In this document: piece by piece, positions 6,530 through 55,460 of the stretch
Layout: every line of letters starts with the position of its first letter
How positions within the stretch are numbered: position 1 is the first letter of the stretch
Origin: Cyanidioschyzon merolae
Taxonomy: Eukaryota
Direction: 5' to 3' (one strand)
NCBI GenBank assembly: GCA_000091205.1
Contig: AP006496.2
Length of the DNA stretch: 64,000 bases
Notes under the pieces: generated by a model
The model's input: only the letters and a program-made list of their open reading frames with translations
Database searches by the model: none
Told to the model about the DNA's origin: nothing
Made by a program: the position numbers and the translations under genes

Positions 6530-8268
6530 GAGCGTTGCAGCGCAGCGTCTGCATCAGTAAGAGTCGCTTCCCTGGCAAGCTCGCTCGACGTAAAGCCGGT
6601 GGACGATCTGGAAGCACGAGATATTGCCTGAGGTTGATCGAGGGGTTCAAGTCTCGATGCAGTATGGACGGGTATGTGTGTGTACTTGCTGCTGGCGTCA
6701 CGACGCAGCGAGCCTCACGCCTTTGATTGCCGCTGCATCTCATGGTCGAGCGGCTTACCGTACGCCATCTCGTGCGTCTGTCTCTGTTTCGCTCTCTGAT
6801 TCTCTACCGGATTCGGCACGCGCCCGTGCTCATGACACGTGTATGCCGTCCTGAACACATCGGCGGGCATCGTGCAGCGCGCATTTCTGTATTTACTTCT
6901 GTATTTCGGCATGCTCATTGCATGAGCAGGCGTCCAGCATTTCTGCGTTATAGCGCGCCCTGCTCCATGGGTTACCTATCAAAGAAAACTGAGCAGCTTC
7001 ATCTGCTTCGCACTGAGGCCTTCGGCTCCGTCCCCGCGCTCTAGACGCACAGCGAAGGCCATGGCGCTATCTGACCTGGGAATCACGCGCACAGCGAAGC
7101 CTTTCCCCGCATCTAGCTTGAACAGTTGGAAATGCGTCGCGCTGCCCGAAAGGATACTTTTCGGCACCTGCGCTGTCGAGGTCCCGTTCAAGGACGTGGT
7201 GCGTCGACCTTTCAAGGTATTCTGCGGGCTGTAGGTGCGAGTCTCTGACCCGACGCTCAGGCCGTGTTGCGGGTTTTGTTCCGGGCTTCATTCACGCTGT
7301 CCCTCGGGGAGGGTTCAGCCATAAAAAGCGCAGAGCAATGTGGACAGCTGGCAGCCCTGCGCCCGCAACACGTACGCATTGTTGGTGAACGAGCTGCGTC
7401 ACAGCGCGCGAAACTGAGAGAGTCCTCATCGAGTGCGAAGCAACGCGACGCCATTTGGCGACCTGTATCTCGCTTTACTGAATATTCTCCCTGCTAATGT
7501 GTCTTTGCAGGGAGGCGTCGAGAGTGGTTCCGGCGTCATGCGCCCGATCCGTGAGCTTTTCCTTCCTGTCCCTGCACATCCTCTTCGTCTGAGGGATCCT
7601 CCTGCTCGTGGCGGAGCGGCCTCTTCGCCTTTGCGTCCGCTCGGCTGCGCGCGCCTTGAGCGCTTTCGAGTAAGGGGGCGCATCGTACCCAACGATCAAC
7701 CCAGAAGAATGCGTGATAGAGACGCAACGGAGCGCTTCGACGGAGTATGAGGTGCTGAACGAAGCCGTCTGCTTGGCGATCACTAGGTGGCTCGGCAATG
7801 AAGTCGCCTCTGGGCCTGATGGTGTCGGAATGCTCGCTTATTTGTGCTTTGGGATCCGTCGTTCGCGCCTCGTTGGGTACCCTTGTGCGGGTCCACCATC
7901 GCTCCCGAACAAGTCCCTTTGCGGCGTTATACGGAAATCGAGCACCTCATGTGAGAATCATTGGCGCCGCAGTGCGAAATCGATAAATTGTGTCGTTCAG
8001 CACGAAACAGTCTCCCATACAAGTGCATTCCCTTCTGTATCCGTCTGTGTCTCTTCGGAGCAGCTCGTACCGACGGTACGGCATCATCACAGTCGATGAC
8101 TGCTTCCGTGGAATTCCGTATCGAAGAAATGGAGTGGCATAAATTGACGAGGAGACACACTGATCAACACAGGGTTTGGTACCGTCCGCATTGAGTGCGA
8201 ATCGTTCATCATGCAGAATACGAGTGGGTAGCTGCATCCAGCCGCTGACCCTGGACTGGCTGACTTGT
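6530..8268 (-). mobile_element. Copy 1 of a ~2-kb dispersed repeat family carrying a decayed TnpB/Fanzor-like ORF (sense on the minus strand), truncated at both ends relative to copies 2 and 3
   Basis: Near-identical DNA at 39945-41925 and 59294-61285. Minus-strand ORF pieces contain KLDAGKGFAVRVI (RuvC-I-like, compare [16 protein letters not shown]), AVRLERGDGAEGLSAKQMKLLSF (compare [25 protein letters not shown]), VFRTAYTCHEHG (compare B EFRTSYTNHELG) and ILHRDLNPSINLRQYLVL (compare B FVNHDLNAAINIKRCAVL). The reading frame is broken many times. Confidence 0.75.
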
Positions 8269-9718
8269 ACAAATCATGTCGCCTTTGGTACACCAGCACT
8301 GACACCATAGAAACTTTACGCCAACTCTCTCCAATCGATAGGCTCCATTCTCTTTGTCTTAGGCATGCGACAACCATGGATAAAGACGAAACCTGACCTG
8401 CTGGTACAGTTGGTACAAAATTCGCTGCTCGGATTATATCGATGATGCGCTGTGTGCCGAGGACAAGGTGCGCGGACATTACCGGCTGCCGCTGTGGTCA
8501 CTGCAAGCACCCGCTCATAGCTATGCACCCGCTCGAGTCAAGCATGTGTGGTTCACGCGTCATCGCTTAGGAACGAATATTTCATCGTCGCTGCATTATA
8601 TCGCAGGAGATCGATATCACGATGCAACTGACCGTATAGATCGTAGACGAATTGACTCCAGGATATATTCTTTACTGAATAGTTCAAGGAGGATTGCGTC
8701 CCTTTTTCAGATCAGTCATGCCATAGGACGCAGATGATTGAGGAACACTGTAAGGAACCAGTATATGCGATCTGCGTCAAAAACCGATATTTTTAAAGAC
8801 TGCTTGCCGTTTATGCTAGAAAACTTCCGATTGATCAAACTACGGAAAGCAAAACTGACGATCAGAGCCATCCCGGGCGTCACTGTTTCTCAACAGATCA
8901 ATTGTATGGTCCTGGAAACAGTAGGATAGTCTCAAGAGTCATAATTCACGCACGGCCATCTTCCATGGAGATCGCAATGTCGACGTTCCTCGAACGTCGC
9001 GATCTTCATCAAGCAGAGTGACGTCAGTCTGTTTTTCAGTTGATGCGACATCCTCCGGACGAAAAGGTTGGAGTATACATGAGTATTCGTGGAGCTGGGA
9101 ACCCGTTGTATGTACGATCGAACTCGAAGAGAACGAGGACGTCATCCATTCTTGCTGCAATCGATCCATTTGGCTGTCTCAGATTCGCTTGTGGAGAAGG
9201 CTGAAAGAAAAGCACCTGCTTCGTCTACTACTTGGAAACTTTTCTCCTGACATCTGGTGACGCCATCCTATTGGACAGTGTCGAATTTCGCCATCCGCTT
9301 TCCGTTCGAGCATTTGCCGATTCTATCGGGGAACGAGCTGTCTTTCATTCCTCAGTGTGCTGCGTGGTTCATCCCCATCAGAGGAATGTTTTTGATCATG
9401 AAACGCAGTGATCGCTCCACTGGGTGAATCGCTGAAGCGTTCAGCACACGCTGGCACAACGGAGCACATAAAATCTTCCTTCTGCATGTGCGTCTGTCTC
9501 TGGGAAGGTCAGCACCTAAGGGCATAAACAAGGGCGTTCGTTTGAATACATTAAAAAATCCAGGGAAAGTTATGGACTCGGAAGTCCGAGATGTTTGAGG
9601 CCCGGTGTTGCCAGCTGCCGGATAAAAAACGGAAAGAATCCTTTTCTCGACAAACATCAAGCGAACAAGAGTATGTGACGAAGAAGAAAAAGAAAAGAGG
9701 GGACACAGCACAGCAAAG

Positions 9719-10006
9719 ATGTTTGGCCGACGGGATAGTGACGATCCTGTTATGTCACAGAGGACACGAGTTCGAGGAATCCTTGCTTTGGTGAGTTCCA
9801 CCAGCGGCAATAAACGCATGAAGTTCGTGAACCGAGAATTCAACGTCACCATCAGGATCAGACGATCTGCGGTGCTAAACACGGGGACCGAGGACCCCGG
9901 GCGATTTAACTTCATGGGGCAGCCTCTCAGACTCGACTTGTACCCAGATAATTCGAAATCGATAGCAGACGGCCGGTCCAGGAAAAGCTGGGAGACGTCG
10001 GTGTAA
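9719..10006 (+). pseudogene. C-terminal fragment of a TnpB/Fanzor-like nuclease gene, divergent from copies A and B
   Basis: RTRVRGILALVSSTSGNKRMKFVNREFNVTIRIRRSAVL...FMGQPLRLDLY aligns with B RRAKVRGLLALMSTTNDSKKRMEFVNHDLNAAINIKRCAVL...FIGQPLKVKLY. The stop codon TAA sits inside a GTAAGT hexamer. There is no upstream N-terminal part. Confidence 0.6.
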
Positions 10007-10027
10007 GTTTCTCCTTGATTCATTGAG

Positions 10028-10650
10028 AGGAACAGAAACTAACCATTCACTATCAACTCGATAACAATTTCTTCCCTGCTCTACCGTACACGTTTACAAG
10101 GGGAAAAGATTTCCGTATTTTCGAAAGCTTTCCTTCTAAGCGGAAGGTCCCGCGAGCCGGACGAGTCTGATGGGCTCGTGCTCCGTGCACCTCTGAAGTG
10201 CCCGGTGCTATAGTGAGGCCTGAACAGCTCCTCCGCAACGCACTATATTCTGGGACCAGGAGCAGGTAGGATGCATCCAGGTGTCGCCATAATCACAGAG
10301 GTCTCCGGGAATATCGCTTCGCGCTGTCGCAGGAAGTAGGCCTGTCTGCGCAGTTTGCAGACCCCCAGAATGCTGACAAGTCTGAATTCCGTATCGGATG
10401 AACCAAGCATCAAACCGACGCCCTGAGTGGTATGGCAAAGCCGTTCTGTCTCCGTGCAGCATCTGCTTCAACGGCATACGCGCGATTGCGGATGCAGCAA
10501 GACAGGTACCCGGCGCACGATCGAGCGTACATAACGACCGGTACATCCGAGAGGAACTATGGATCAGGGAACTTGCAAGTAGGTTGCAGCATGAAGGATG
10601 CTTTCTCGGTAACCAATATCCATCCCACAATCTGCGATCCATGGTCCAAG
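10028..10650 (+). repeat. Conserved ~620-nt non-coding unit, copy 1 of 3. It corresponds to the left end and leader of Fanzor-like element B and is a candidate structured RNA or regulatory module.
   Basis: Collinear DNA similarity to 21828-22450 and 54858-55460 with indels. Shared blocks are gaacaga[ag]a[ct][ct]aac, aa[ag]gg[ag]aaa...tt[ct]ccg, cccgcgagcc[ag]gacgagt, gcagttaa[ag]ctgc[ag]tctgggcgtcg, ggctcccagaatg and tgcatc[cg]gcatcagcgg. Reading frames are not conserved across copies (the 22-kb copy has stops), and a stem such as gcgagcc...ggctcgc is retained with changes. Confidence 0.6.
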
Positions 10651-11019
10651 GGATCATTCTACCGAATAACAACAAAATCGTGCGCAGGTCGCCGACGGCG
10701 CCCGCGCCTCTACCAGCCACAGACGTATGCGCTTTGCGTAGGCTCTTTGCTGGAGGCCTGTCGCTCAACACTGCACGTGCTGCTTTTCCCTCTGTGTGTG
10801 ATGCGGAAACGACGCAGCAGTTTAGGTTTCGTTGAGAATGTCTGCCTTGTGTCGGGCGTCGGGAGCGTCACGCGCTGGAGCGCTCGCGCTTCATCCCAGC
10901 GTGCCACCTCGGAAGCGCTGGTGTTTCGTCAGCCACGTGTTAGGGTTACTCGGCAACCGTCGAGGCGCTTGCGGCACCCTTTGGATGGCACTGGTGCGGG
11001 ACTGCGGGGCGCACAGCAC

Positions 11020-12915
11020 ATGCACTGTGTTTCAAGGCTCACGGAGCGGTCCCTGGCTGTGATTCATCCAGGGAGCGCTCTGCAGACAGTGCGCCAAGTG
11101 CTCACGACGCTCCTGGTCGCGTGCAGCTCGGACGCTGCTGTTGTCACCGCTGCAATAGTTTGTCTCTCCGTGTACTTGTCGTTGCACGTTAACCAAGCAC
11201 GCCGGGCCGAAATCGCGCAGAACAGGCCAACCGACGGCCACGCTCAACGGCATGCACCTGGACTCTCAGATAAAGCGACCGCTAGACTAGTAGCAATAGA
11301 GATAGGACGTTCGAGCCGAACACTCTATGTTGACAAGGGCCCGCTGGATACAACAGCCTCAGAGCGATTGCTGCTGGCTATATCGGACGCAAGCTCCTTT
11401 CGCGCACGCGGAAGAAATGTATGGCGCGCTCTCGTGGGGTCGCTCTTGCCGGAGGGATTCGGCGACAAGACACGCTTCCCGCCCGTTGTTTCAGATGACT
11501 ACCTGCCGTATACCGTCCTTCACTTTATGCAGAACCTCGTCCACGCTGCAGCGTCAGTCATTGCGACGCAGTCGATGCTGATTGCCATCGGCGTCGCCAA
11601 GCAGGCCACCATCGGCGTCTCCGCTGCAGTGCAGTGGGTTCTCAAGGACGGGCTTGGGCGCATCGCTGCGATCATCTTCGGTTCGCTTCTGGGGAACCGC
11701 TACGACGCCGATCCGAAGCGTTGGCGAATGCGCGGCGATATGTTGTACACGCTGGGTGTGGGCACGGAGATCGCCACGCGCCTGGTACCGCAGTACTTTC
11801 TGCTGGTAGGCACCATGGCAAATGCCATCAAGTCCGTATCCTATATGATGCGATTGCCAACAGCTGCCGCCATTCGGAGGCATTTCTCCTTACGGGAAAA
11901 CTTTGGTGATCTATCTGCAAAGGCGAATTCGCAGGAGGTTCTCAGCATGTTGCTGGGTACTTTTGTAGGCATCGGCCTATCCTACATGATCGACAATAGT
12001 CTGAAGGCTCTCTTTGCATTCTACATCATTTATGTACAGATGTTCATTCTTTTTAACTACTGGTCACTTCGCGTTTTGCGGATGCGGACGCTGAACTTGC
12101 AGCGAACGCTCATTGTCATGAGGCGCTACTGGAACTCGGGTGGCGTTGAAACCTGCTCAGTGGCGATGGCGAACCAGGCGGAGAACTTTCTACTGCCATC
12201 GCGTTTGGGGCCCGCCCGCAGAGTGCGTTTCGGGTGTCGGCTGGGGGAAGCATTTCGAACGGTAGGCGAATTCGAAGAAGCGATTGCCAGGCAGCGATTA
12301 TGGCGAGGACAGTACCTCCAACAAACAGATGTCAGCAAGCGAAACGGCAATGCAGATGCTGACTTCACCAGTGTACCGGATGATGTACTCGATGAGCGCT
12401 ATTTGCTCGGCGTAGATGCAAAGCGTGGCCGAGTCTTCGTTGTCCTGCACCGGGACGCCAAAGTTGCAGATGAGCTGCAAGCGCTCATGCATGCGACCTA
12501 CTTGGTGCGTGCTGACTGGGGCCCGCCTCCCGACATGTCCATAGACAGGGTACGTGACGGCTACTTGCTGGCATGTGCAGAGACACCAGTCCTGGTTCAG
12601 CGCATGCGAGCAGTCGGTTGGAATGTGGACGAATTTGTGCACGCAGGCGGAGAGCGGGCAAGAGCCATCTGGGGAACGGAAATCGAACAGCTCGGCACAG
12701 CCGCTGCCGACGTCGAGCACCCGACGTCTGCGCTGACGCGCCTGCTTCATCCGGCAGTCACGAAGCAACCCTCATCGGTAGGTTCGTACGAGCTTCTCAC
12801 GACCGTTCAGGAATCAGCAGAGGCGACGGCAGCGGAGGAGTCGCTTGCCATGTCGCCATGGGGCCCTACGTTCCCCGAAGTGTCCTTCGGGTCCGAACTG
12901 GATATCGTATCTTGA
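11020..12915 (+). CDS. RUS-family protein (DUF647, root UV-B sensitive / vitamin B6 homeostasis family). The ORF is open upstream to 10432 and overlaps the repeat unit, so the start codon is uncertain.
   Basis: LLPEGFGDKTRFPPVVSDDYLPYTVLHFMQNLVHAAASVIATQSMLIAIGVAKQATIGVSAAVQWVLKDGLGRIAAIIFGSLLGNRYD matches the DUF647 core (LPxGFPxSVxxDY...QxxLxAIGVG...QWxLRD). Confidence 0.7.
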   Translation: MHCVSRLTERSLAVIHPGSALQTVRQVLTTLLVACSSDAAVVTAAIVCLSVYLSLHVNQARRAEIAQNRPTDGHAQRHAPGLSDKATARLVAIEIGRSSRTLYVDKGPLDTTASERLLLAISDASSFRARGRNVWRALVGSLLPEGFGDKTRFPPVVSDDYLPYTVLHFMQNLVHAAASVIATQSMLIAIGVAKQATIGVSAAVQWVLKDGLGRIAAIIFGSLLGNRYDADPKRWRMRGDMLYTLGVGTEIATRLVPQYFLLVGTMANAIKSVSYMMRLPTAAAIRRHFSLRENFGDLSAKANSQEVLSMLLGTFVGIGLSYMIDNSLKALFAFYIIYVQMFILFNYWSLRVLRMRTLNLQRTLIVMRRYWNSGGVETCSVAMANQAENFLLPSRLGPARRVRFGCRLGEAFRTVGEFEEAIARQRLWRGQYLQQTDVSKRNGNADADFTSVPDDVLDERYLLGVDAKRGRVFVVLHRDAKVADELQALMHATYLVRADWGPPPDMSIDRVRDGYLLACAETPVLVQRMRAVGWNVDEFVHAGGERARAIWGTEIEQLGTAAADVEHPTSALTRLLHPAVTKQPSSVGSYELLTTVQESAEATAAEESLAMSPWGPTFPEVSFGSELDIVS

Positions 12916-18541: not shown

Positions 18542-19286
18542 TGTCACTTCTTTGCACAGTCACATAAAGGCCGCCAATGGTGCCCCTTCATGTTTATGAT
18601 GTAGAAGGCTTGCTGTGCGCCATGCAGCGCAGGAGGCTGCTTCGTTCCGCTGCGCACTCTGGTGCGTGCTCGCTACCGAACGCTTGCATGCATCTCCATA
18701 GCGGGGCGCAGTCGCACGTCTCCACAGAGCCATTCCGGACATGATCGTCTTGAATGGTTTGTGTGTTGGAATACAACCCGTGGTGAAGCGTGATGCCGGC
18801 GAGGGTGACGCTTACCACGAAAACACCTCCTGCGACCAGTCGTCTTGCGGGCAGCTCCAGCCAGCGCTTTCCTGACAGTAACTGTCTTCCGAGCAAACTC
18901 GCGTACGTCATATAATTCTGCAGACACGTCCCCGTTTCACGGAAGGGAAAATCTCGAGGAGCAAAGCGGAGCCGCCCGCACGCCCACACACACACATCTA
19001 TGATAGGGACGAGAACGGATCACCCAGCACTTGTGTGACGAACAGTGCTCCGTGTCGCGTTCTGTTTCCGTGCACGAAAGGCTTGCTTTCAGCGCTACTT
19101 GTCGTAATTAAGGACCGGCCAGACCGTTGGAGCAGTGTCCGGTGCAGTAGACCGCGTACCTGAAAGCCACAAAAGGCGCACAGGGCAGAGCGCCGTACTG
19201 CGTCCAGCTCGCGAAACCGGTCGCTTCTTTCGGGCGATGGGCGCGGTCGCCTGCTGCTGGTCCGTGGTATCGCCGACACAAGGAGC

Positions 19287-21815
19287 GCCTTAAAAGTCGA
19301 ACGTCGCCGGCGGCCGTGTACAGTAGTGGCGAGAAACCCGCCCTAGATAAAACGTCTTCAGCTGACGTGCAGACGCCTCCCAGCTTTTTTGGACAGGCTA
19401 CCTACTACTGCCTCCAACTTTTTCTCATACAGCTCCACTTTGAATGATTGCGCAACAAAGTTCTCTCGTGTCAACTCTGGAGGTCTTCTTTCCACCACGG
19501 CACATCTCCTTATATTGATAGCGGCGTTAAAGTCACGATTCACAAACTCCATACGTTTCTTGCCATCTTTGTTTGTACACAGTAATGCGAGTAGTCCACG
19601 AGCTTTCGCCCTGCTTTCCATTTGCTCCTCCGTCAACGCTCCGTACTTTTTTACATCCTCAGGGCTTCACTGGTACTTTTCCATCTCCACTCTCTGAAGC
19701 GTACAACCCACTTCATGGTGTGTATACGACGTCCGGAACTCATCTACAGGTATCGTAACGAGATGCCTTTCACACACCTTGTGCGTTCTTGTAGCTGGAG
19801 CTAGCCTAGTCCCTTTTTCCCACGCCTACCGCCCTGCCCAATACGCTTCTACTAGCCTCTGACTGTCGCTCTCCTTCAAGGCGCTCAACTCATTGAAAAA
19901 ACTCGTGAACGCACGCTGCCTCCCACCGTGTAGATTCATACACAACCGAGCCCACCGGGGCTTTGTATACTCCTCCTACAGCGCCTCGCAATGAGCAACA
20001 CGAACTTCCATAAACTCCCGGAAAGCGTGAAAGTCCGCTCCCCGGCCCGTCACCTGGCTGATCGCTTCCAGGTGCTCTTTCAATCCTGCGTTCCACGCCC
20101 CACTTTTCTTCCTTTATTCATTACACTGAATTCTCGGTAATATCTCGTTCTTGAAAGCTTTAAAACACGCATGTGTTTTTGACGTAGGTTGCCGTCGATG
20201 CCATCATCCCCGCAATTGCGTGTTGTGATGGTCATGATATTCGTGTTCCCAGGGCCCGCGCCAACGACAAAGTGGTTCTCATGCACCTCCTGCTTCGTGG
20301 GGCTAGCCTCTTTGTTTTCTTCACGCTTTGCCAGCGACGGCAACGAAGACAGAACTGGACGATCCGCCTTCAAGCGCCGATAATGTACACGCATGGCTAT
20401 CGCATCACTTTCGATCATCCCAGTAAAGTCCTTTTTCTTGCTCGTTCTGAGACGTTTGGAATCGAAGATATTCTTCTTCCAGTACGTCTCCTGGTTTTCA
20501 CCGGTGAACTCCTTGTTGCTTACATCGAACACTGGACAGATCTCCGTAATGATGCCGTAAGGGATTTCGGAGTCGATACTCACAAAATGTGACTTGATGT
20601 TGCACAACGGAACGACGTTGAAGCGCTTCTCCAGAAGCGCAGCTTTCCGTTTCTCCGTCACTGCATTTGCTTCAACACCCTGCTCCATATCGGTCTTGCA
20701 TTTCAGTTGTCGGTTCAGGAATATGGTATAGCGCAAGATGAGGCGATCGTATCTTTCCGAATCTTTTTTCAACTCTGATATCTTTTCTGCTGGACTCGCC
20801 AGCCCCAAGACCACACGATGCTCTTTAATAGCTGCACGGATTACAGAATCCTCATTTGCTCTCCTGCGTGATGTCTTCTCGTGAACAAATTCGATCTACT
20901 GTTCATTCTTACTATCGTTTGTGATGCCATCGATGATGGTCCATATCCCTTTGCGAGAGGGGCCCGGGTAGCGCGTACAGACGGCGCGTATCATGAAACG
21001 TTCCAGGTTCATGGTCAAATAGTTCTTCAGGTTCGTGAGGTGCTTCATAACCCCGACGGTGTAAATACGCGAGTCACCCCTGTCTCGAGTACCGTTGAAG
21101 CGGAATTCGGCGTAATTTTCGTGGAGGGCATGCACCCGCTCATTTCTCCTCGACGTTTCCCCTGTACCAAGCATCAGGTGACGAATAAAGGTTTTGCCGA
21201 AAAATTCTTCCAGAACCTCGACTGTTTTGATGCCCGTTGCGTCGTCGCGCATCTCCTTCACCAAATGCATTATACCTGCAGAAGCCATCATAACACTCAT
21301 GGAGTCTGACTCGATACGGTTTCTGATGGCCTCTCGCAGCTTTCGCCGGGACGGATCCTTGATATGTGCGAGAAGACAGGTTTTCACCACCATCTGGTCG
21401 TACTGTCGTGTTTCGTTCAGCTTCTGACCTCGGGCCTCCCTCTTTTGCTCCATCGTCTTCTCATGTTCCTTTTAGCTCCGCCATGTTTTTCCTTAGTCTC
21501 CGGCAGTCGACGACACCAGATGTCCAGGATCCTCCAGTTTCTTTTCCACAACTTTTTCATTATTTTTGAAGAAGAAGAAGGCTCTTTCAACGCTTCTGAT
21601 ATGAATCGCTAAAATTGATTTGAATACACTAACTTGAGGTTTGAAACACAATTGCATTAAACAACTTTAATTTGTTACGACTTTAACGCAAATACAACTT
21701 GTACGGTAGAACAATAAGAAAACGGATTTTCACAATTTCGCGTTTCCTTTCAACGGCGACACGTGCGTCTTGTCTCGTACGACCTGATCTCCCCGGCGCG
21801 CTAACCGACCGCAGC
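19287..21815 (-). mobile_element. TnpB/Fanzor-like element copy A (pseudogene). Its 5' leader is truncated where element B begins, and it has an in-frame TAG, an internal deletion and frameshifts.
   Basis: ORF pieces 20896-21453, 20080-20814 and 19358-19636 on the minus strand are collinear with copy B at about 55-65% amino-acid identity ([17 protein letters not shown]; KRMEFVNRDFNAAINIRRCAVVERRPP...KVELYEKKLEAVVGS). The manual translation around 19985 reads VRVAHCEAL*EEYTKPR where B has VRVAHWDSLWEEYTKPR. The 3' tail after the stop codon matches B's tail (tcgccactactgtac...cttttaagg). Confidence 0.75.
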
Positions 21816-21827
21816 ATACAGAGCAAA

Positions 21828-22450
21828 GAACAGAGACTAACCATTAACTAGCAACGATATACCAATTTATCTTCCCTGCACGATAAACGATAAAAAGGAA
21901 ACACGATTCCCGTTTTGTCGAAAGTTGAATTTCTCGACGGAAAAACCCGCGAGCCAGACGAGTACCCCAGGCACGTGCTTCGTGCTCGCCTCCCAGTGGC
22001 GGGTGCTGCACTGAAATCTGAGCAATTCGTCTGCAGCACTGTTTATTCTGGTACTAGCGGCAGTTAAACTGCATCTGGGCGTCGATCCGGTCGCGGTGGA
22101 GTCCTAGTATAGAGCTTCACGCTATCGCAGGCAGTGTGTCTGTCTGCGGAGCTTGCTGGCTCCCAGAATGATCCTATACTCCAACTCTGTGTCAGGTGGA
22201 GCATTCCTCGATCCGACGCCCTCAGTAGTACGGCAACGCTGCTCTGTATCTGTGATGCATCGGCATCAGCGGATTAGACGCTAAGGCGGGTGCATCAACG
22301 CATGCACCCGGCGAATGACAGGAAGCACGAGACGAGTAGTACATCTGAAAGGAAGTATACGTAATGGAATCTGGAGTTAGAATGCAGCATGATGGACGCT
22401 TTCGCTGAATCCGATACCCATTTATAGCACAATCTGGGATCCATTGTCAA
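21828..22450 (+). repeat. Conserved ~620-nt non-coding unit, copy 2 of 3; this copy is the left end of Fanzor-like element B
   Basis: See 10028-10650. Copy A (minus strand) is collinear with B only from about 22215 onward and lacks 22340-22450. Confidence 0.6.
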
Positions 22451-22802
22451 TATAAGTGTTTTTCCATCGGAAAAATGAAGCGTGTAGCTCTAACGTACAA
22501 ATTGTAACGATGTTCAAGTCGTAGAAAAATACATTGTTTGTCCTCAATCGTGTTTCAACCTTCACTCTAGTGTATTCAAGTGCTTTTTCGTGCGTAATAG
22601 CTGTCCCATCCAAAGTGGTTTCGGTTTTTATATTGAAAAAGGAAAGTTACGGAAGTGGAAGTGTAGGATCCTGGGCGTCAATGTCGCCGGCAGCCCGAAA
22701 AAACGAAGAACAGTGCCAAGTGCAAAGGAACAGGATAAGAAGAAGAAGTAAAAGTGGAAGGCCCTACGTCAAAGGCTACACAAAAGACGACGGTACGACG
22801 AG

Positions 22803-24838
22803 ATGGCGGTGAAAGCCTGTCTTCTTCAACATACCAAGGATCCGTACAGGGAAAACGTTCGAGAGGCAATATGGAACCGTGTCGAGCCGAACTCCAGCGG
22901 TGTTCGTGATGCTTCTCAAGGAATGTTGCATTTCCTAAGAAAATGGTATCATGACGTTACGGACATCAAAACAGTCGATATTCTGGGTGAATTTTTCAAC
23001 AAAACCTTTATTCATCACTTTATGCTTGGCACCGGGGAAACGTCTAGGTGAAATGAGCGAGTTCATGCCCTCCACAAAATTTACGCCGAGTTCCGCTTCG
23101 ACGGTACTCGATACAGGGGGGATTGGGATATTTACATCTACGGGGCGATGAAGTACCTCACCAGTCTAAAGAACCATTTAACAATGAACCTCAAAAGCTT
23201 CATGATACGCTCCATCTTTGCACTCTACCCCGGTCTCACTCGTCAGGGGATATGGGCGATTGTCAATGGCAACACGAACGATCGCAAGCATGAAGATGAG
23301 ATTGAATTCATCGACGAGAAGAAATCACTCAGGAGCATGAATGAGGATTCCGTCATCCGAGCGGCTATACAAGAGCATCGTACGGTACTGGGGTTGGCGA
23401 ACCGAGCAGCAAAGATATCAGAGTTGAAAAAAGATAACGAAAGATACTATCGCCTCGTCCTGCGTTACTTTGTGTTTCTGGGCCGTGAGCTCGAACGCAA
23501 GGCAGAGATGAAGCTGAGTGAGGAAAAAATGAAGAGCGGGGGAAACGAAAGGCTGCGCTTCTGGGTAAGCGCTTCAACGTCGTTCCGTTGTCCAACATCA
23601 AGTCACGTTTTGTGACTATCGATTCCAGAATCCTTTACGGCATCATGAAAGACTTCAGCCCCGAGTTTAATGTCAGCAGGAAGGAGAGTACCGGTGAAAA
23701 CCGGGAGACGTACTGGAAGAATATGTTTGATTTCACACGTCTGAAAGTGGGCAAACAAAAGGTATTCACAGGGGTGATCGAAACCGATGGAGTAGCCATG
23801 TGTATTCACTATCGGCGCTTGAAGGCGGATCGTCCAGTTCCGTCTTCGATAGTGTCCGTGACGAAGCATGAAGATGAGAAGGAGGCGGATTGTGCCACAC
23901 AGAAAGTGCAGGATAACAACTTTGTCGTTGGCGCGGACCCTGGGATTACGAATATCGTAACCATCGCTGCTCCCAAGCGTGCGGAAGATGGTAACGACGG
24001 TAACACACGTCAGAAAGGCATGCGTCTGTTGAGGTTCTCGAGAGCGAGATACCACCGAGGATCCGGCGTAATGAATGCAAGGAAGAAAATCATTACATGG
24101 AATTCAGGAATGAAAGAGCACCTGGAAGCTTTGAGCGAGGTGACGAGCCGAGGAGCGGACTTTAACGCTTTTCGGGAGATTATGGAAGTTCGCGTTGCTC
24201 ATTGGGATTCGCTGTGGGAGGAGTATACAAAGCCTCGACGGGCTCGTCTGCTTATGAACCTGTATTGTGGGAAGCGGCTTGCATTCGCCAACTTTTTCAG
24301 TCAGTTGAGCGCCTTGAAGGAGGATGAAAGTCAGAGGCTCGTAGTAGCATACCGAGCAGGGCGCTGGGCGTCGAAAAAAGGAACTACGCCAACTCCAACG
24401 ACAAGAACGTACAAGGAGTGCGCACGGCGCTTCGCTACGATACCTGTAGATGAGTTCCGAACATCCTATACAAACCATGAACTGGGGTGCACGCCTCAGA
24501 CGGTCGAGATGGAGAAGTGTCAGCGAAGCCCTGAGGATATACAAAAGTACGGACCGCTGACGGAAGAGCATATGGGAAGGAGGGCGAAAGTTCGAGGGCT
24601 ACTTGCACTAATGAGTACAACCAATGATAGTAAGAAACGTATGGAGTTTGTGAATCATGACTTAAATGCCGCGATCAATATCAAGAGATGTGCGGTGCTG
24701 GAGAAGAGACCTCCAAACTGGACAAGAATGAACTTTATTGGACAACCTCTCAAAGTCAAACTATATGAGAAGAAGTTGGAAGCAGTAGTAGGCGGCCGGT
24801 CCAAGAAAACTGCGAGGCGTCTGTACGTAAGTTGGTGA
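22803..24838 (+). pseudogene. TnpB/Fanzor-like RuvC nuclease ORF of element B. It is nearly intact, with one in-frame TGA (23049-23051) and one 14-nt tandem duplication (23562-23575) that shifts the frame.
   Basis: N-terminus MAVKACLLQHTKDPYRENVREAIWNRVEP..., RuvC-I-like [31 protein letters not shown], and RuvC-III-like KRMEFVNHDLNAAINIKRCAVLEKRPP. Where A has TSRRNERVH, B has TSR*NERVH. Deleting tgggtaagcgcttc restores the frame (ERLRF|NVVPL, matching A EKRFNVVPL). Confidence 0.75.
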
Positions 24839-24905
24839 TGTCTAGTCTGGGGCGCGGCGATCGCCACTACTGTACCACTGGCGACAGCGTTTTTCTTTTG
24901 AAAGG
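24839..24905 (+). other. Right-end tail of element B: conserved hairpin-like segment followed by a T-run. It is a candidate terminal omega-RNA scaffold and/or terminator.
   Basis: gtaagttggtgatgtctagtctggggcgcggcgatcgccactactgtaccactggcgacagcgtttttcttttgaaagg. The matching tail of copy A runs from tctagggcgggtttctcgccactactgtacacggccgccggcgacg to ttcgacttttaagg. The two sequences diverge immediately after this point. Confidence 0.45.
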
Positions 24906-24944
24906 CGTTGGTTTCCAGGGGCGCGCGCTACAGCAACGCCTCTG

Positions 24945-25517
24945 GTGCGCCTGCTGGGTATGACGGCAGACGCAGCTTGGCCAGCGCTCGTGGTTAGCTT
25001 TCTCCTGGGGCTTTTCGCAGGGCGCCGCAGCAAGCACCAACGAACTGGTGCCAGCGGGCTGGACACGAGTGCATCGGGCGCGCCTGCTGGGTCAGTGATC
25101 GACAGCACGCCCGCTGATGCACCGTTCGCCTCGCTGGTGCCGCTCGCGTCGGCGCCGTCAGGGACCACCGCTGACGTTAAACTGATGCTCATCGTACGTC
25201 GTGACCTGAAGATGAGCCCTGGCAAAATTGCCGCTCAATGCGGGCATGCCTCTGTCGGTGCTTTTAGAGGGTGTACGGATCGCGCGCTGCTGGCTGCTTG
25301 GGATCGAAACGGCCAGCCGAAAATTGCGCTGCGCTGCAGCTCACTGAAAGAGCTGTTGGCGATCGAACGGGCGGCCCGGCAGCTTCGTATACCGACTTTT
25401 GCCGTACGCGACGCGGGGAGAACGCAGGTCGTGGCGGGCACGATTACGGTGCTGGCTGTTGGGCCTGCCGAGAGTGCCAAACTCCAGAGAATCACCGGCC
25501 ATTTGAAGCTACTTTAA
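24945..25517 (+). CDS. PTH2: Peptidyl-tRNA hydrolase 2 (PTH2/PTRH2 family) with an N-terminal membrane anchor
   Basis: KLMLIVRRDLKMSPGKIAAQCGHASVGAF...GQPKIALRCSS...RDAGRTQVVAGTITVLAVGP...ITGHLKLL matches PTH2 [22 protein letters not shown]...KIVLK...DAGRTQIAPGSxTVLAIGP...VTGHLKLL. Confidence 0.8.
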   Translation: MRLLGMTADAAWPALVVSFLLGLFAGRRSKHQRTGASGLDTSASGAPAGSVIDSTPADAPFASLVPLASAPSGTTADVKLMLIVRRDLKMSPGKIAAQCGHASVGAFRGCTDRALLAAWDRNGQPKIALRCSSLKELLAIERAARQLRIPTFAVRDAGRTQVVAGTITVLAVGPAESAKLQRITGHLKLL

Positions 25518-26141: not shown

Positions 26142-28403
26142 CTACTCCATGCGATTCAGGAATCGTAAAAGAGCAGCGAGAACGCTGTCCACCCGGGGCG
26201 TCGATGCATCCGGCAACGCCGTTTCAAGACGCGCTTCCGCAATCTGATTTGCACCCAACGATTGGAGCAGGGATCCAAACCCCGTTTCAAGCAGGAGCGC
26301 CCCCATATTCTCTAGGAGGCTCGCAAGAAGCCCTGTCGATCGTGGACGCACCTCCATGAAACGCAGCGGTCGATCTGCGGCTAGTTCAAGACGTTCCCGA
26401 CACAGCTCGACAGCGCGATCAAAGCCGCCGAGTGCATCGACGAGCCCCACGGCGAGCGCTTGCGTACCCGACCAGACACGTCCTTGTGCGTAGCGATCGA
26501 ACTCGTGATGTTGGCGACCACGGCTCTCCGCTGCCTTGCGCACAAACGACTCGTAGACTCGCTCCGTACTCCGCGTGAAATAGGCATCCTCTTCGGGTGT
26601 GAAGGGCCGAAAATCCACATCGAGCTCCGCATAGCGCCCCCTACTCAAAACCTCTCGACGAAATCCAATGCGCTCAAAGAGTTGTTGCAGAGACGGTTTG
26701 GCAGTTACAACGCCGATGCTGCCTGTTAGGGTGAGAGGTTCCGCCACGATCGCCTGGCATCCCATGCTGATGTAGTAACCACCGCTACCGGCAACGTCGC
26801 CCATACTCGCAATGACCGGCTTGCGCTTGGCCAGCTCGCGGATGGAGTTCCAGATCAGGTCCGATGCTAGCGCGGAGCCTCCGGGCGAATCAACACGAAG
26901 TATCACAGCTGCGAGGCTTCGATCGTTTTTCGCTCGCTCCAACTGCTCCACAAGCGTGTCCGAGCCTATGCTGGGACTGAATAACGGGTTCGACGAGCTG
27001 CGTCCCGTTTGGATAGCGCCCAACGCCCGAATCACCCCAATTTTCGTGACACCTCGGCGACGCCCTTCGGGCAGGCCTAACACAGACGGACGCACCCGCC
27101 GATAGCGCTTAGCGGCCACTGCTCGCAATGGACGCACCAACAATCGTCGCAGGCGACGGTCTGCACTGCTCGAGCTGCTCTCCTTTTCGCTGGTTTCGGA
27201 TAGACCCCAGGCTTTGCCGACAAACCGCATTTTGAGCTTGTCTAGAAGATCATTCTCATAGGAGATACCATCTACGAATCCGAGCGCTTTCCATTCGGCT
27301 ACCGTCATGGGCGGATCGTCCAGGATGCGATGCACGACGGCTGCAGGGTCTGGCTCTGAACCCACTCGTGTGCTCAGCTCGCTGCACAGATGTTCATACT
27401 GTTGCTCCAGAAGCGATGTGAGGACTTCACGTTGGGCGTCGCTCATCGTGCGTCTGGCAAGCTGATCGCCTGCTGATTTATAGGCGCCAATGCGCTTCAC
27501 TTGCGGCTCAATGCCGATCTTGTCAAGGACGCCGCGTAGAAAGCTCGCGGAGACTTTCATGCCCCGAAGCGACAGGATACCCTCCGGAGGCATGTAGATC
27601 TCATCTGCGCCGAGCGCCAGATAGTACTCTCGTTCGGAAGCTACCGCCATGTAAACGATCACCGGTTTGCCTGATTGTCGGAAGTAGTCGAGATAGCGGC
27701 GCGCTTCCTGCAAACGAGCGTAGCCGCATGCCAGTGGACCTATCTTGACGTACATGGCGCAGATTCGCGGATCATGCGCTCCATTCCGGCATATTCGCTT
27801 CCAGTCTTCCAGCGAGATGCTGCTGGCGGCGGGGAAGGTAGCCGCGTGGCTGTCGGGAAACGGGCCCTCGAGATCGACGGTTATTGTCGTATAGCGACGA
27901 AGGCGGACGCGCACGAACACGAGCTTCCATGCAAGCCATACCCGCCATAGCCAACCCGTCTGTGGCTTGAACTCCAAACGATGTGCCTCCAGCGCACCCG
28001 GCACGCGCACATGGTTCACCGCGGACGGCTCAGGGAAGTTCACCGTGCCAGCGGCCTCGCCGAGTTCGCTGACGACGCTGTTTGGCGGGTCGCGCGAAGC
28101 TCCAGCCTCGTGAAGACTCGCGGACAGCGGGAGCCGTGGAGCACGCCCGCGTCGCGTTCTTGCCAAACGAGGAGCACGGGAAGTGCTCTCTCTGTGGCGC
28201 TGCACGCCGCTCCTGTTCGAGCGCTGACGGAGACGCGAAGCGCTGCCGGCCGGCGCCGCTACGAACGCCGCCGCTGACACGAGCATCGCGGGCTCCGTTC
28301 CAAACACGTTGGCAGACTGCGAAAACCTTCGTTCCAGCGAACAAACGACAAGCGGAAAGCGGTGGAATTCGCAACTGCGTCCACAACGCAGCTGTCGTTG
28401 CAC
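26142..28403 (-). CDS. sppA: Signal peptide peptidase SppA (protease IV, 67K two-domain type) with an Arg/Ser-rich N-terminal presequence; plastid-type
   Basis: VIASMGDVAGSGGYYISMGCQAIVAEPLTLTGSIGVVTAKPSLQQLFERIGF, and a second ClpP/crotonase-like half containing KPVIVYMAVASEREYYLALGADEIYMPPEGILSLRGM. Confidence 0.75.
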   Translation of the reverse strand: MQRQLRCGRSCEFHRFPLVVCSLERRFSQSANVFGTEPAMLVSAAAFVAAPAGSASRLRQRSNRSGVQRHRESTSRAPRLARTRRGRAPRLPLSASLHEAGASRDPPNSVVSELGEAAGTVNFPEPSAVNHVRVPGALEAHRLEFKPQTGWLWRVWLAWKLVFVRVRLRRYTTITVDLEGPFPDSHAATFPAASSISLEDWKRICRNGAHDPRICAMYVKIGPLACGYARLQEARRYLDYFRQSGKPVIVYMAVASEREYYLALGADEIYMPPEGILSLRGMKVSASFLRGVLDKIGIEPQVKRIGAYKSAGDQLARRTMSDAQREVLTSLLEQQYEHLCSELSTRVGSEPDPAAVVHRILDDPPMTVAEWKALGFVDGISYENDLLDKLKMRFVGKAWGLSETSEKESSSSSADRRLRRLLVRPLRAVAAKRYRRVRPSVLGLPEGRRRGVTKIGVIRALGAIQTGRSSSNPLFSPSIGSDTLVEQLERAKNDRSLAAVILRVDSPGGSALASDLIWNSIRELAKRKPVIASMGDVAGSGGYYISMGCQAIVAEPLTLTGSIGVVTAKPSLQQLFERIGFRREVLSRGRYAELDVDFRPFTPEEDAYFTRSTERVYESFVRKAAESRGRQHHEFDRYAQGRVWSGTQALAVGLVDALGGFDRAVELCRERLELAADRPLRFMEVRPRSTGLLASLLENMGALLLETGFGSLLQSLGANQIAEARLETALPDASTPRVDSVLAALLRFLNRME

Positions 28404-28620: not shown

Positions 28621-29089
28621 TCGCTGAGCGCATGCCGCAAGCGTCCCTTGTGGAGCTTGTACCGTTGGCACGAATGCATCTCAATGACAGAACGGCTTTG
28701 CCGTACTAATGAGGACGCCGCCTCGGTGCTTGGTTTATCCAACATGGAATCGGGATTCACTATCATTACGAGAGCCTGCAAGCTGCGCAGACAGACCTAC
28801 TGCCTGCAACAGCGCGAAGAGATTTACCAGGATAATCCTGCGAACACGGGCGACTCCTAGACGCAGCGCACCAGCTCCTAGTCCCGAACTGAACTGCGTT
28901 GCGGGCGAGCTGCTCAAGTCTCGCCATTGCACCCACCACTTGGTGGAGCATGAAGTTTCAGCGCGGCGGAGTCGTCTGGCTCGCGGGACGCCCCGACTAA
29001 AAGGTGAACTTTCGACCATGCGAAACAATTTTGCCAGCTTCAACACGTACCGTCGAGGCAAATATTCGTATATCGTTGCTAGGTAGCGT

Positions 29090-30040
29090 TCGTTTCCGTG
29101 ATTATTTTCTACAGCGCAGTCGATACGCACACCATCATATTTGGGAGATGACATTGACGGCAGCCTGCGCCACAATGAGATGCGTCTTTTGAAGTTCTCG
29201 AGAGCTGCATATTGCCGACAGTCGGAGATAATGAAGCCCAAGAAATACTGCACCCTGCAACGCTGAACAGAAGGAGTACCTGGACGCGATGAGCAAAGTC
29301 GCGTCGCGCGGAGCGGACTTTCGAGCTTTTCTCGAATTCACGGAAACTCAAGCTGCTCATGCCGAGGAGCTGTGGAAAGAGAGTATCCAAAGCCCCGGTG
29401 GGCTCGTCAGCGCATGAACCTTCGCAGAGGGAAGAAGCGGGTACGCGGCATGTTCATGAATCAGTTGAGCGCCCTCAAGCAGGACAAGAGTCAAAGGCTC
29501 GTAATTGGATACGCAGCAGGGCGCCGGGTGTCCAAAAAGCTAGCGTACCAGCTCCATCGACAAGAGCGCGCAAGGAGTGCACACACCGTTTCATCGCAAT
29601 ACCGACAGATGAGTTCTGAACGTCCTACGTGCACCAGGGGCTGTGGTATACGCTTCTGGAGGTCGAGATGGAAAAGTGCCAGCGGAGGGCTGAGCATATA
29701 CAAAAGTGCGGAGACCTGACGGTGCAGGAAATGGCACGAAGGGCGCGAGTTCGAGTACTCCTCGCTCTAGTGGGTTCAAGCAGCGGCAACAAACACATGC
29801 AGATCGTGAATCGAGACTTTAACGCCGCTTTCAATATCAGGTGATGTGCGGTACTGGAGAAGAGATTCGAGGGGTTGACACGATCCAATTTTGTGCCACA
29901 AACTCTCCGAGTCCAACTGTAAAACGAGAACTTGAAACCAATAACAGGCGGCCGGTCGATAGAGACGGAGCGGCGTCAGCACGTCGGTACATAGGTACCC
30001 GCGCGATCATCGTACCGTATTCAAACGCGATCCCCAGAAG
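29090..30040 (+). pseudogene. 3' fragment of a TnpB/Fanzor-like element of the A/B subfamily, with multiple frameshifts and stops
   Basis: MRCVF*SSRE aligns with [63 protein letters not shown] and KHMQIVNRDFNAAFNIR align with B ALSEVTSRGADFNAFREI, SQLSALKEDESQRLVVAYRAGR, RFATIPVDEF and KRMEFVNHDLNAAINIK. The tail ggcggccggtc...cgcgcgatcatcgtaccg is similar to B's right end. Confidence 0.6.
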
Positions 30041-39944: not shown

Positions 39945-41925
39945 TGTGGCGTTCCAGCCTCGCTCGACAGCTGACCAGTACCATACCAGTGTCTTGGCGC
40001 AGGCGAGGATCCGAATCTTCCCCCTGTTTCCTAACGTCTTTATTGCATCCGAACTCCACAGCGTTGCAGCGCAGCGTCTGCATCAGTAAGAGTCGATTCC
40101 CTGGCAAGCTCGCTCGACGTAAAGCCGGTGGACGATCTGGAAGCACGAGATATTGCCTGAGGTTGATCGAGGGGTTCAAGTCTCGATGCAGTATGGACGG
40201 GTATGTGTGTGTACTTGCTGCTGGCGTCACGACGCAGCGAGCCTCACGCCTTTGATTGCCGCTGCATCTCATGGTCGAGCGGCTTACCGTACGCCATCTC
40301 GTGCGTCTGTCTCTGTTTCGCTCTCTGATTCTCTACCGGATTCGACACGCGCCCGTGCTCATGACACGTGTATGTCGTCCTGAACACATCGGCGGGCATC
40401 GTGCAGCGCGCATTTCTGTATTTACTTCTGTATTTCGGCATGCTCATTGCATGAGCAGGCGTCCAGCATTTCTGCGTTATAGCGCGCCCTGCTCCATGGG
40501 TTACCTATCAAAGAAAACTGAGCAGCTTCATCTGCTTCGCATTGAGGCCTTCGGCTCCGTCCCCGCGCTCTAGACGCACAGCGAAGGCCATGGCGCTATC
40601 TGACCTGGGAATCACGCGCACAGCGAAGCCTTTCCCCGCATCTAGCTTGAACAGTTGGAAATGCGTCGCGCTGCCCGAAAGGATACTTTTCGGCACCTGC
40701 GCTGTCGAGGTCCCGATCAAGGACGTGGTGCGTCGACCTTTCAAGGTATTCTGCGGACTGTGGGTGCGAGTCTCTGACCCGAAGATCAGGCCGTGTTGCG
40801 GGTTTTGTACCGGGCTTCATTCACGCTGTCCCTCGGGGCGGGTTCAGCCGTAAAAAGCGCAGAGCAATGTGGACAGCTGGCAGCCCTGCGCCCGCAACAC
40901 GTACGCATTGTTGGTGAACGAGCTGCGTCACAGCGCGCGAAACTGAGAGAGTCCTCATCGAGTGCGAAGCAACGCGACGCCAATTGGCGACCTGTATCTC
41001 GCTTTACTGAATATTCTCCCTGCTGACGTGTCTTAGCAGGGAGGCGTCGAGAGTGGTTCCGGCGTCATGCGCCCGATCCGTGAGCTTTTCCTTCCTGTCC
41101 CTGTACATCCTCTTCGTCTGAGGGATCCTCCTGCTCGTGGCGGAGCGGCCTCTTCGCCTTTGCGTCCGCTCGGCTGCGCGCGCCTTGAGCGCTTTCGAGT
41201 AAGGGGGCGCATCGTACCCAACGATCAACCCAGAAGAATGCGTGATAGAGACGCAACGGAGCGCTTCGACGGAGTATGAGGTGCTGAACGAAGCCGTCTG
41301 CTGGGCGATCACTAGGTGGCTCTGCAATGAAGTTGCCTCTGGGCCTGATGGTGTCGGAATGCTCGCTTATCTGTGCTTTGGGATCCGTCGTTCGCGCCTC
41401 GTTGGGTACCCTTGTGCGGGTCCACCATCGCTCCCGAACAAGTCCCTTTGTGGCGTAATCCGGAAACCGAGCACCTCATGTGAGAATCATTGGCGCCGCA
41501 GTGCGAAATCGATAAATTGTGTCGTTCAGCACGAAACAGTCTCCCATACAAGTGCATTCCCTTCTGTATCCGTCTGTGTCTCTTTGGTGCCGCTCGTACC
41601 GACGGTACGGCATCATCACAGTCGATGACTGCTTCCGTGGAATTCCGTATCGAAGAAATGGAGTGGCGTAAATTGACGAGGAGACACACTGATCAACACA
41701 GGGTTTGGTACCGTCCGCATTGAGTGCGAATCGTTCATCATGCAGAATACGAGTGGGTAGCTTCATCCAGCCGCTGACCCTGGACTGACTGACTTGTCCA
41801 AGTAAGGCTGTTTTCTCGTGAACTACCGGTGACAACACCTTGTGTTTCCTGTTCCTGTCTCCATTCTGCAGGATACCCTCCGTTTTCTTGAATGCGTGTG
41901 AGAGATGTAGAGAAAAAGAACGTGC
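39945..41925 (-). mobile_element. Copy 2 of the ~2-kb Fanzor-relic repeat family (full-length relative to copy 1)
   Basis: The predicted ORF fragments are identical or near-identical to copy 3, and about 97% identical to copy 1. Confidence 0.8.
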
Positions 41926-42279
41926 TGATATAGCGACTGCATACGCGATCTGCGTAGGCAGCGATGCCCTGATGCCCCTGTCCGTAAAGATCCTAAATAT
42001 CGAAGATCTAAACACACCCCTGAGGCTCTGCAGCACAGGCCAGCGGGAGAACGTGTACTCCGGTGCGCGCGGAGACTGCCAGCCAGCTGGACGCAGCGTT
42101 GTTCGCGTCCCTTAGCTGAGCACGACTAGCGGGGCTCAAAGGTCCCCTTTTCTGACGCAAGCGCTTGGGGTTGTTGCTCTGGCACCAGTGCGCATAAGGC
42201 CCTGTGCGAAGCAAGCAACACTGTTGAAGGGCGAGCAGCGAACGACGACGCATACGCGACGGTTTCGCTCAAGATACTC

Positions 42280-54857: not shown

Positions 54858-55460
54858 AGAACAGAGATCAACGAGTGATTAGCAACTCGAGAACAGCTTC
54901 TTCCCGGCTTCACGGTGAGCGTTGAAAGGGAAAAAAGTTTTCCGTAATTTCGAAAGTGTATCGTGTTGGTGGAATTTGGCGCGAACCGGATGAGTCCGTC
55001 AGGCCAGAGCTCGCTGTGCCTCTAAGGTGCCGGGCCAGTAGCGAGTTCTGAGCAGCTCGTCCGCAACGCAGTTTATTCTGCGACTAGGGGCAGTTAAGCT
55101 GCGTCTGGGCGTCGCCCATGTTGCAATTATCTCCTAGCATATCGCTTCGCTCTGTCGCAGGCGGCAGGTCTGCTTACCCATTTTTCAGGCTCCCAGAATG
55201 CTTACATAATCCGATTCCGTACCTGGTGAAGCGGCCCGCAATCCGATGCCCTCAGCAGTATGGCAAAGCGTTCTTGTCCCCGTGCTGCATCCGCATCAGC
55301 GGTTTAGGCGCAATCGCGGATGCAGCAAGACAGGCACTCGCAACACAATGGAACATTCAAAACGGCAAGTGCATCCAGGCAGAGGCAAGGGCCATGGAAC
55401 TTGGACGTAGAGTGCATCATGGTGGACGCTTTCCCGAATACCAGTTTCCAATCCGCAGGC
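54858..55460 (+). repeat. Conserved ~600-nt non-coding unit, copy 3 of 3 (solo; no adjacent nuclease ORF)
   Basis: See 10028-10650. It ends about 250 nt upstream of the eIF4E ATG on the same strand. Confidence 0.6.

Follow-up and report, generated by a model that had tools for sequence, protein, structure and literature searches.

The 64-kb stretch of a Cyanidioschyzon merolae 10D nuclear chromosome analysed here (contig AP006496.2; hereafter the window) contains a pair of homologous elements that face each other head-to-head, copy A on the minus strand (19273-22477) and copy B on the plus strand (22479-24921), with 2.4 kb in common at 77% identity. Six-frame translation shows that each arm of the pair contains one long broken reading frame, in which the motifs VVGA(D/G)PG, VDEFRTSYT and KRMEFVN(R/H)D(F/L)NAAINI can be recognized. 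We believe that the region is very probably a transposon graveyard, made up of two independent, ancient and inactivated insertions of CMe-1A, an element that carries a Fanzor1 gene. A first-pass annotation, prepared from the sequence alone, had identified the elements as Fanzor/TnpB-like, and this is correct; several of its structural details are wrong, and nothing in the window is functional.

The inverted pair and its full-length unit

The head-to-head arrangement is evident both in gapless inverted blocks, with 19318-21555 being 73-83% complementary to 22643-24875, and in a gapped local alignment of B 22489-24907 with A 21710-19286 (77.4% identity over 2403 nt), a homology that lies far beyond chance. 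The pair is also AT-richer than its flanks, as had been noted (G+C 47-51% versus 55-60%), and the GADPG, DEFRTSYT and KRMEFVN(R/H)D(F/L)NAAINI motifs listed in the first pass are all recovered by translation. The outer ends proposed there, 19287 and 24905, were nearly right; we place them at approximately 19273 and 24921. The features of the pair, including a module that resembles the separately repeated element TE-N2_CMe, are as follows, with related loci on metagenome contigs given by their L numbers.

19273..21812, minus strand: copy A, Fanzor module of a full-length CMe-1A-type element, colinear with L007, L009, L036 and L058
~19273-19286, minus strand: 3' (right) end of copy A, the left end of its Fanzor module being at ~21812
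21826..22477, minus strand: TE-N2-like 5' module of copy A, ~650 bp, resembling solo copies at 10030-10646 and 54856-55433
22459-22475: hairpin TTTTTCC-ATC-GGAAAAA at the outer end of the TE-N2-like module of A
19358..21453, minus strand: predicted Fanzor1 pseudogene of copy A
19273..19330, minus strand: non-coding 3' end of copy A, with GCCACTACTGTAC at 19318-19330 and a degraded terminal hairpin at 19284-19304
22479..24921, plus strand: copy B, a 5'-truncated CMe-1A-type element
22803..24838, plus strand: predicted Fanzor1 pseudogene of copy B
23588-24838, plus strand: intact 416-codon open reading frame (ORF) of copy B
24863..24921, plus strand: non-coding 3' end of copy B, with GCCACTACTGTAC at 24863-24875 and a terminal sense-strand hairpin at 24886-24909

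Comparison with 80 related metagenome loci reverses the roles that the two copies had been given, A having been described as the truncated copy and B as the fuller one. The minus strand of the window from 22475 to 19292 forms a single 3199-nt match with L007 (21..3184; 75% identity) and aligns with L009 and L036 in an equally colinear fashion; L008, L016, L023 and L069 also align with the full A unit, with breaks only at a variable internal repeat. Copies without TE-N2 stop at 21812/21813 (eight loci). This end point and the colinear 3.2-kb match argue that the full-length unit, of about 3.2 kb, is composed of the Fanzor module of copy A together with the TE-N2-like module. In this unit the TE-N2 module, when compared with its solo copies, runs opposite to the Fanzor gene. 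Copy A is structurally full-length: its TE-N2-like 5' module is followed by a leader, then by the Fanzor1 gene, and last by a 3' end that is conserved. The homology of B to other copies, in contrast, starts only at 22479-22483 (15 loci), which argues that copy B (~2.4 kb) is 5'-truncated and lacks both ~74 nt of the left end of the Fanzor module and the TE-N2 module.

No more than about 3 bp separate the 5' terminus of A (22475-22477) from the truncated start of B (22479). The elements lie end to end, as the first-pass annotation had it, with the junction at 22475-22479 and not near 21.8 kb. It had also raised a nested insertion, but there is no remnant of the B 5' end to the left of A (Smith-Waterman score of 17, compared with a shuffle maximum of 23), and A was therefore not inserted into B. 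Nor do we see a preferred insertion site, as the recurrent TE-N2/Fanzor junction is one that has been inherited by copies of one composite and not re-created at each locus.

The elements match a family that has already been described. Bao and Jurka (2013, Mobile DNA 4:12, PMC3627910) list one Fanzor1 family in C. merolae, CMe-1A, with ~150 copies that are ~80% identical to the consensus; the complete consensus is ~3 kb long, it has no terminal inverted repeats (TIRs) and its target-site duplications are undeterminable, its 5' 635 bp are 95% identical to TE-N2_CMe, which is separately repeated in ~70 copies, and some copies are still intact (PMC3627910). The window elements share with this description the host, the length of ~3 kb, the ~650-bp 5' module that is also a separately repeated element, the lack of TIRs, and the state of the copies, which are about 75-80% alike and mostly decayed with rare ones intact; nothing essential is different. 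We note, as a reservation, that the CMe-1A identity is one we infer from the host together with how the copies are built and their TE-N2 module, measured against the published description.

Probably independent insertions and broken genes

The identity between copies A and B (77-80%) does not exceed that of either one with copies found on unrelated contigs (75-82%). For example, the 3' part of B is 82% identical to L001, while A is 75% identical to L007 over its full length and 78-80% identical in its 3' part to copies on other contigs. Their 3' ends are also of different subtypes, and the subfamily to which the B 3' end belongs is common to L014/L028, L007/L010 and L051/L032. Taken together, these comparisons point to two independent, old insertions. 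The locus is 93-98% identical in related strains; including copy B, it is present at 97-98% identity on metagenome contigs L003-L005, and L039, a contig from a related strain, matches the A/B junction at 95%, so that the arrangement must be older than the divergence of the strains. With some 77% identity between the copies, 75-82% identity to copies elsewhere and a locus that is 95-98% conserved in related strains, the suggestion that the elements are recent does not hold. We also note that L039:1-3400, which is 95% identical to window 21495-22748, is only ~81% identical over the 3' end of B; this drop would be due to ectopic conversion among copies, or else to chimeric assembly of the metagenome.

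If a single element had been duplicated locally and in inverted orientation, instead of two being inserted, this would account for copies that are adjacent, inverted and within about 3 bp of each other, but we regard it as improbable. The identity of A with B is no higher than that with copies on unrelated contigs, A has a hairpin of the CGTTCGAC type whereas B has a TTTTTC...GAAAGG hairpin and a TTTCCAGGGG tail, the 5' structures of the two copies differ, and no flanking host DNA has been duplicated. We therefore retain the reading of two separate insertions.

Judged from their codons, both copies are pseudogenes, and neither should be able to make an active enzyme. Copy A had been called dead on the strength of an in-frame TAG where B has a Trp codon, together with a deletion; the TAG is present, at 19978-19976, and there is a 1-nt deletion near 20115, but the list was incomplete. 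There are four in-frame stops in all (the others being at 20898-20896, 19828-19826 and 19669-19667), the RuvC-I motif reads GAGPG because the catalytic Asp has been replaced by Gly (20256-20254), and a family-invariant Gly has become Trp (19840-19838). Copy A has retained the alternative Glu (19741-19739) as well as the RuvC-III Asp (19534-19532).

Copy B contains the TGA stop that had been reported, at 23049-23051. The 14-nt duplication said to accompany it is absent, there being no tandem duplication of 8-30 nt anywhere in copy B, and the frame is shifted by the loss of 1 nt from the A6 run at 23524-23529. All three catalytic codons are present (RuvC-I Asp at 23936-23938, alternative Glu at 24452-24454 and RuvC-III Asp at 24659-24661). 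The description of B as nearly intact is nonetheless too generous, as Arg stands at an invariant Gly position (24353-24355) and His at that of the invariant Arg which precedes the RuvC-III Asp (24656-24658), and the N-terminal basic extension that is present in relatives such as P0019 is broken by a further stop and frameshift. Of 85 related loci, L001 and L018 alone have kept an open frame that is 720 codons or longer and includes all three motifs, which agrees with the rarity of intact copies stated in 2013.

Could copy B, or its 416-codon ORF, nevertheless have retained a function, be it that of a nuclease shortened at its N terminus or that of a host protein after domestication? The ORF at 23588-24838 is uninterrupted and has a confident in silico fold, the D, E and D codons are present, and the locus is 93-98% conserved in related strains. 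However, conservation of that order is expected of neutral sequence in close strains; the ORF starts with a TTG, all of the N-terminal half found in family proteins is missing from it, the TGA and the frameshift lie upstream of it, and the two altered residues (the Gly at the RuvC-II position and the Arg before the RuvC-III Asp) are invariant in 52 relatives. We consider a surviving function very unlikely.

Less credible still is the idea that A, TE-N2 and B constitute a composite mobile unit, with two inverted Fanzor arms and hairpin-bearing 3' ends pointing outward in the manner of IS-flanked composite transposons. Both outer termini are indeed element 3' ends with sense-strand hairpins, and the arrangement is kept in a related strain (L039), but among the 85 loci there is no second A-B junction except in likely orthologues, B is truncated and not complete, and no transposase is known for the family.

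A Fanzor1 clade lacking the zinc ribbon

Searches with single sequences are silent as to the nature of the encoded protein. The repaired B protein has no match in Pfam, a phmmer search of the single sequence against the PDB returned nothing, and a search of the PDB with a small profile was also empty, with only a diverse profile succeeding. The single-sequence blanks count against the Fanzor assignment, which is accordingly based on the profile and fold comparisons.

Relatives are plentiful. A word-indexed protein search yielded 50, and then 550, close relatives, all of them metagenomic and including P0053 (702 aa and apparently intact) and the distant P0050 (30% identity); an exhaustive profile search finds 2317 cluster representatives at E ≤1e-3 and 373 at ≤1e-30, typically of 600-700 aa. 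When a profile of 52 diverse relatives is compared with the PDB, three sequences are matched and all are Fanzor1 proteins: PpFz1 of Parasitella parasitica (9cf0, E 6.9e-22), SpuFz1 of Spizellomyces punctatus (8gkh, 4.5e-14) and GtFz1 of Guillardia theta (9cer, 1.5e-9). The alignments span the WED and RuvC domains, with iDPGr paired with IDPNK, dEFrTS with DEYKTS, and nRDlNAA with NRDM. The Pfam family PF07282 (Cas12f1-like TNB) is matched by 28 of the 52 relatives, with a best E value of 2e-8. Hidden Markov model comparison, which had been proposed as a check on the TnpB/Fanzor assignment, is thus negative for repaired B alone and positive for the profile of 52 relatives.

Fold comparison, also proposed at that stage, gives the same answer. 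An AlphaFold2 model of the 416-codon ORF of B (predicted local distance difference test score, pLDDT, of 84; predicted template modelling score of 0.78) was compared with the PDB using Foldseek, and the top seven matches are to SpuFz, PpFz and GtFz (E 3e-12 to 4.5e-8; template modelling score, TM, of up to 0.57), SpuFz being the best; Cas12o, ISDra2 TnpB and other Cas12 proteins follow, and the matches are exclusively to Fanzor, Cas12 and TnpB. Profile, Pfam and fold searches thus all bear out a RuvC nuclease of the TnpB/Fanzor family on mobile elements.

The pattern of invariant residues places the family more closely. Three acidic residues, D422 (in D422-P-G424), E593 and D662, are invariant across the relatives, and the invariant positions of RuvC-III are R661, D662, N664, A666 and N668. 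The canonical RuvC-II position is occupied by an invariant Gly (AYGAG), and the Glu of DEFRTS, 33 residues downstream, is itself invariant. In the window copies, RuvC-I is GADPG in B and GAGPG in A, the Gly at RuvC-II has become Arg in B and Trp in A, and RuvC-III is NRDFNAAINI in A and NHDLNAAINI in B, the Arg having been lost from the latter. In the published Fanzor signature, DPG is accompanied by Gly or Pro in place of the RuvC-II Glu and by a Glu farther downstream that compensates for it (PMC10530073; PMC10711439), and the agreement of the invariant D-E-D and the Gly at RuvC-II with this rearrangement argues, along with the modelled fold, that the family is a Fanzor1 clade. The contrary proposal, that the TnpB/Fanzor likeness is superficial and the NRDxNAAINI block derives from an unrelated repeat protein, would be at ease with the empty single-sequence Pfam and PDB searches, but is already refuted by profile matches to three solved Fanzor1 structures across WED and RuvC and by fold matches exclusively to Fanzor, Cas12 and TnpB, as well as being contradicted by the invariant D-E-D residues, and we give it practically no credence.

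Just before RuvC-I (window ~23860-23935 and 20256-20336) there is a 25-aa unit that is present in one to about five tandem copies among members of the family (as in proteins P0001, P0009 and P0021). It is probably the source of a weak precomputed PF26935 (DUF8286) label.

The first-pass annotation had remarked that the cysteines of the expected zinc finger are replaced. They are indeed absent, but this is not peculiar to the locus, as none of the 56 aligned family members has a complete CxxC...CxxC finger between DEFRTS and NRD. In most of the 56 this segment has 0-3 cysteines, with a single CxxC or Cx4C pair in four; it is otherwise conserved (L..V...RGLLW) and is modelled with a pLDDT of ~80-85. 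A C4 zinc finger between RuvC-II and RuvC-III is part of the motif as given by Bao and Jurka in 2013 (PMC3627910), and a zinc finger is reported for many, not all, Fanzors (NAR 2023, PMC10711439). Its absence is thus a stable trait of the clade and not a mark of decay, and we take it as a variant and not as grounds for exclusion from Fanzor1.

Three known systems invite comparison. SpuFz1 (8GKH), PpFz1 (9CF0) and GtFz1 (9CER) have the same WED and RuvC fold, the DPG at RuvC-I, the RD at RuvC-III and the alternative Glu in D-E-[FY]-x-T-S, and they too are eukaryotic and transposon-borne; however, they show only 14-20% identity, and they keep cysteine pairs between RuvC-II and RuvC-III where the clade is without the C4 zinc ribbon. 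The TnpB elements (ISDra2, 8H1J; IS200/IS605 and IS607) resemble those described here in the homologous RuvC core, in a gene that fills most of a small element, and in a conserved hairpin-bearing 3' end, with no TIRs found in the window elements; they differ in having the canonical RuvC-II Glu, a C4 zinc ribbon, a TnpA partner and a bacterial or archaeal host, and the ISDra2 TnpB fold match to the B model is much weaker (E 1e-4, TM 0.27).

The third system is itself part of the zinc-finger-less clade. At L002:304-3804, P0050 (30% identity) lies beside a DDE_3 transposase (E 2.7e-23) within 41-nt TIRs, and together these make up an entire Tc1/mariner-like transposon that has Fanzor1 as its passenger. 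Carriage of a Fanzor1 gene by a transposon of the Tc1/mariner type is the classic arrangement. The window elements differ from it in having neither a DDE_3 transposase nor 41-nt TIRs.

3' ends, mobility and further copies

The ~85 nt after the usual stop codon of the family include GCCACTACTGTAC, among the best-conserved motifs of the last 350 nt, and homology between independent copies ends 10-15 nt past a terminal hairpin. This hairpin occurs in two versions in different registers, GCGTCGTTCGA-CTT-TCGAACGGCGT and AACGTTTTTC-TTTT-GAAAGGCGTT. Across 44 distinct copies its mean z score relative to shuffled sequences is -2.2, with 21 copies below -2, and in 39 of the 44 the sense strand folds more stably than its complement (-8.2 versus -4.8 kcal/mol) because of G-U pairs. 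Such a bias favours constraint acting either on a sense transcript or on the top single DNA strand.

By analogy with characterized Fanzor1 and TnpB systems, the 3' end of copy B is plausibly a candidate scaffold end of a right-end guide RNA. Several observations weigh against this part of our interpretation. RNAalifold analysis of the 44 3' ends gives -4.8 kcal/mol and finds no compensatory pairs, and a hand-drawn 10-bp long-range stem, in which GCAGTAGT..GGC within the ORF pairs with GCCACTACTG, is 91% paired with only two double changes, with 19-24 of 500 shuffles scoring as high. The guide RNA is thus weakly supported, and both this RNA and a nuclease activity are predictions for the clade. 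If the analogy with solved and tested Fanzor1 proteins holds, an intact protein of ~700 aa would be an RNA-guided RuvC double-strand DNA endonuclease, its guide RNA would be transcribed from the 3' end of the element itself, reading into the flank, and be bound by the protein, and matching DNA would be cut next to a short motif, which could favour retention or spread of the element. The active site in the clade would be the rearranged one, formed by the Asp in DPG, the alternative Glu in DEFRTS and the Asp in RD-NAA-NI, with the C4 zinc ribbon replaced.

We found no TIRs on the window elements, and no transposase in the window or in related loci. Besides that of the 3' end, most copies have a hairpin at the outer end of the TE-N2 module (22459-22475 here), although its stem is not the same in other copies. 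Hairpins, the lack of TIRs and the existence of 5'-truncated copies are compatible with hairpin-dependent single-strand mobilisation. Since TIRs are missing, copies are 5'-truncated and the outer ends have sense-strand hairpins, one may speculate, at rather long odds, that the movement of CMe-1/TE-N2 depends on hairpins in single-stranded DNA, as in IS200/IS605 or Helitron2 elements but in a eukaryote, its partner being a Fanzor1 that has no zinc finger and a guide RNA ending in the conserved 3' hairpin, and that rare intact copies, the open frames of L001 and L018 among them, might still be active RNA-guided nucleases in the Cyanidiales of acid hot springs.

The 3' terminus of copy B, ...GGTTTCCAGGGG at 24910-24921, lies 38 bp upstream of the ATG of the PTH2 peptidyl-tRNA hydrolase gene (24960-25517), whose product is identical to XP_005537212.1 of C. 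merolae 10D. This junction (24921-24960) is 97-98% conserved in related strains, and with so short an interval the 3' end of the element must supply or adjoin the PTH2 promoter or 5' untranslated region. Beyond it, the SppA ORF (26142-28286, minus strand) is identical to XP_005537213.1, also of C. merolae 10D. No tRNA genes were predicted by ARAGORN, and no Rfam families were found at the gathering threshold, in the whole 64-kb window.

At least 208 related stretches are present in hot-spring metagenomes, and there are five further fragments within the window. A short Fanzor C-terminal fragment at 9752-10009 (45% aa identity to B) is followed within ~20 bp by the TE-N2-like copy at 10030-10646, inside which falls the start of the ORF at 10432-12915. 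Just left of the SppA gene there is a TE-N2-like piece (28674-29016, minus strand) and a C-terminal half of Fanzor (29120-29985, plus strand; ~42% aa and 70% nt identity to B), which are oriented to each other just as they are in the full-length composite, and 28674-29985 as a whole looks like an internally deleted CMe-1A copy. The solo TE-N2-like copy at 54856-55433 is 68% identical to 21825-22310. Three other repeats of 1.7-2.0 kb (6531-8272, 39945-41933 and 59294-61283) are 98-99% mutually identical, and each has a degenerate Fanzor-like C-terminal remnant on its minus strand; in tblastn searches these remnants show 33-36% identity to B residues 515-648 and contain the motifs DVFRTTYT and HRDLNPSINL. 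The three make up a second repeat family, much younger than CMe-1A.

What is added to the 2013 description is the orientation of the TE-N2 module, the sense-strand terminal hairpins and the absence of the zinc finger. A 5.6-kb AT-richer gap between host genes, in an alga whose genome is very compact, is accounted for by two relics of a family already published, and the assignment of the complete copy is corrected; the value of this for annotation is modest. The wider clade is large, with 2317 cluster representatives at E <1e-3, and keeps the catalytic D-E-D without a zinc ribbon. Its rare intact members from red algae of acid hot springs (Cyanidiales) could be candidate compact genome-editing nucleases.

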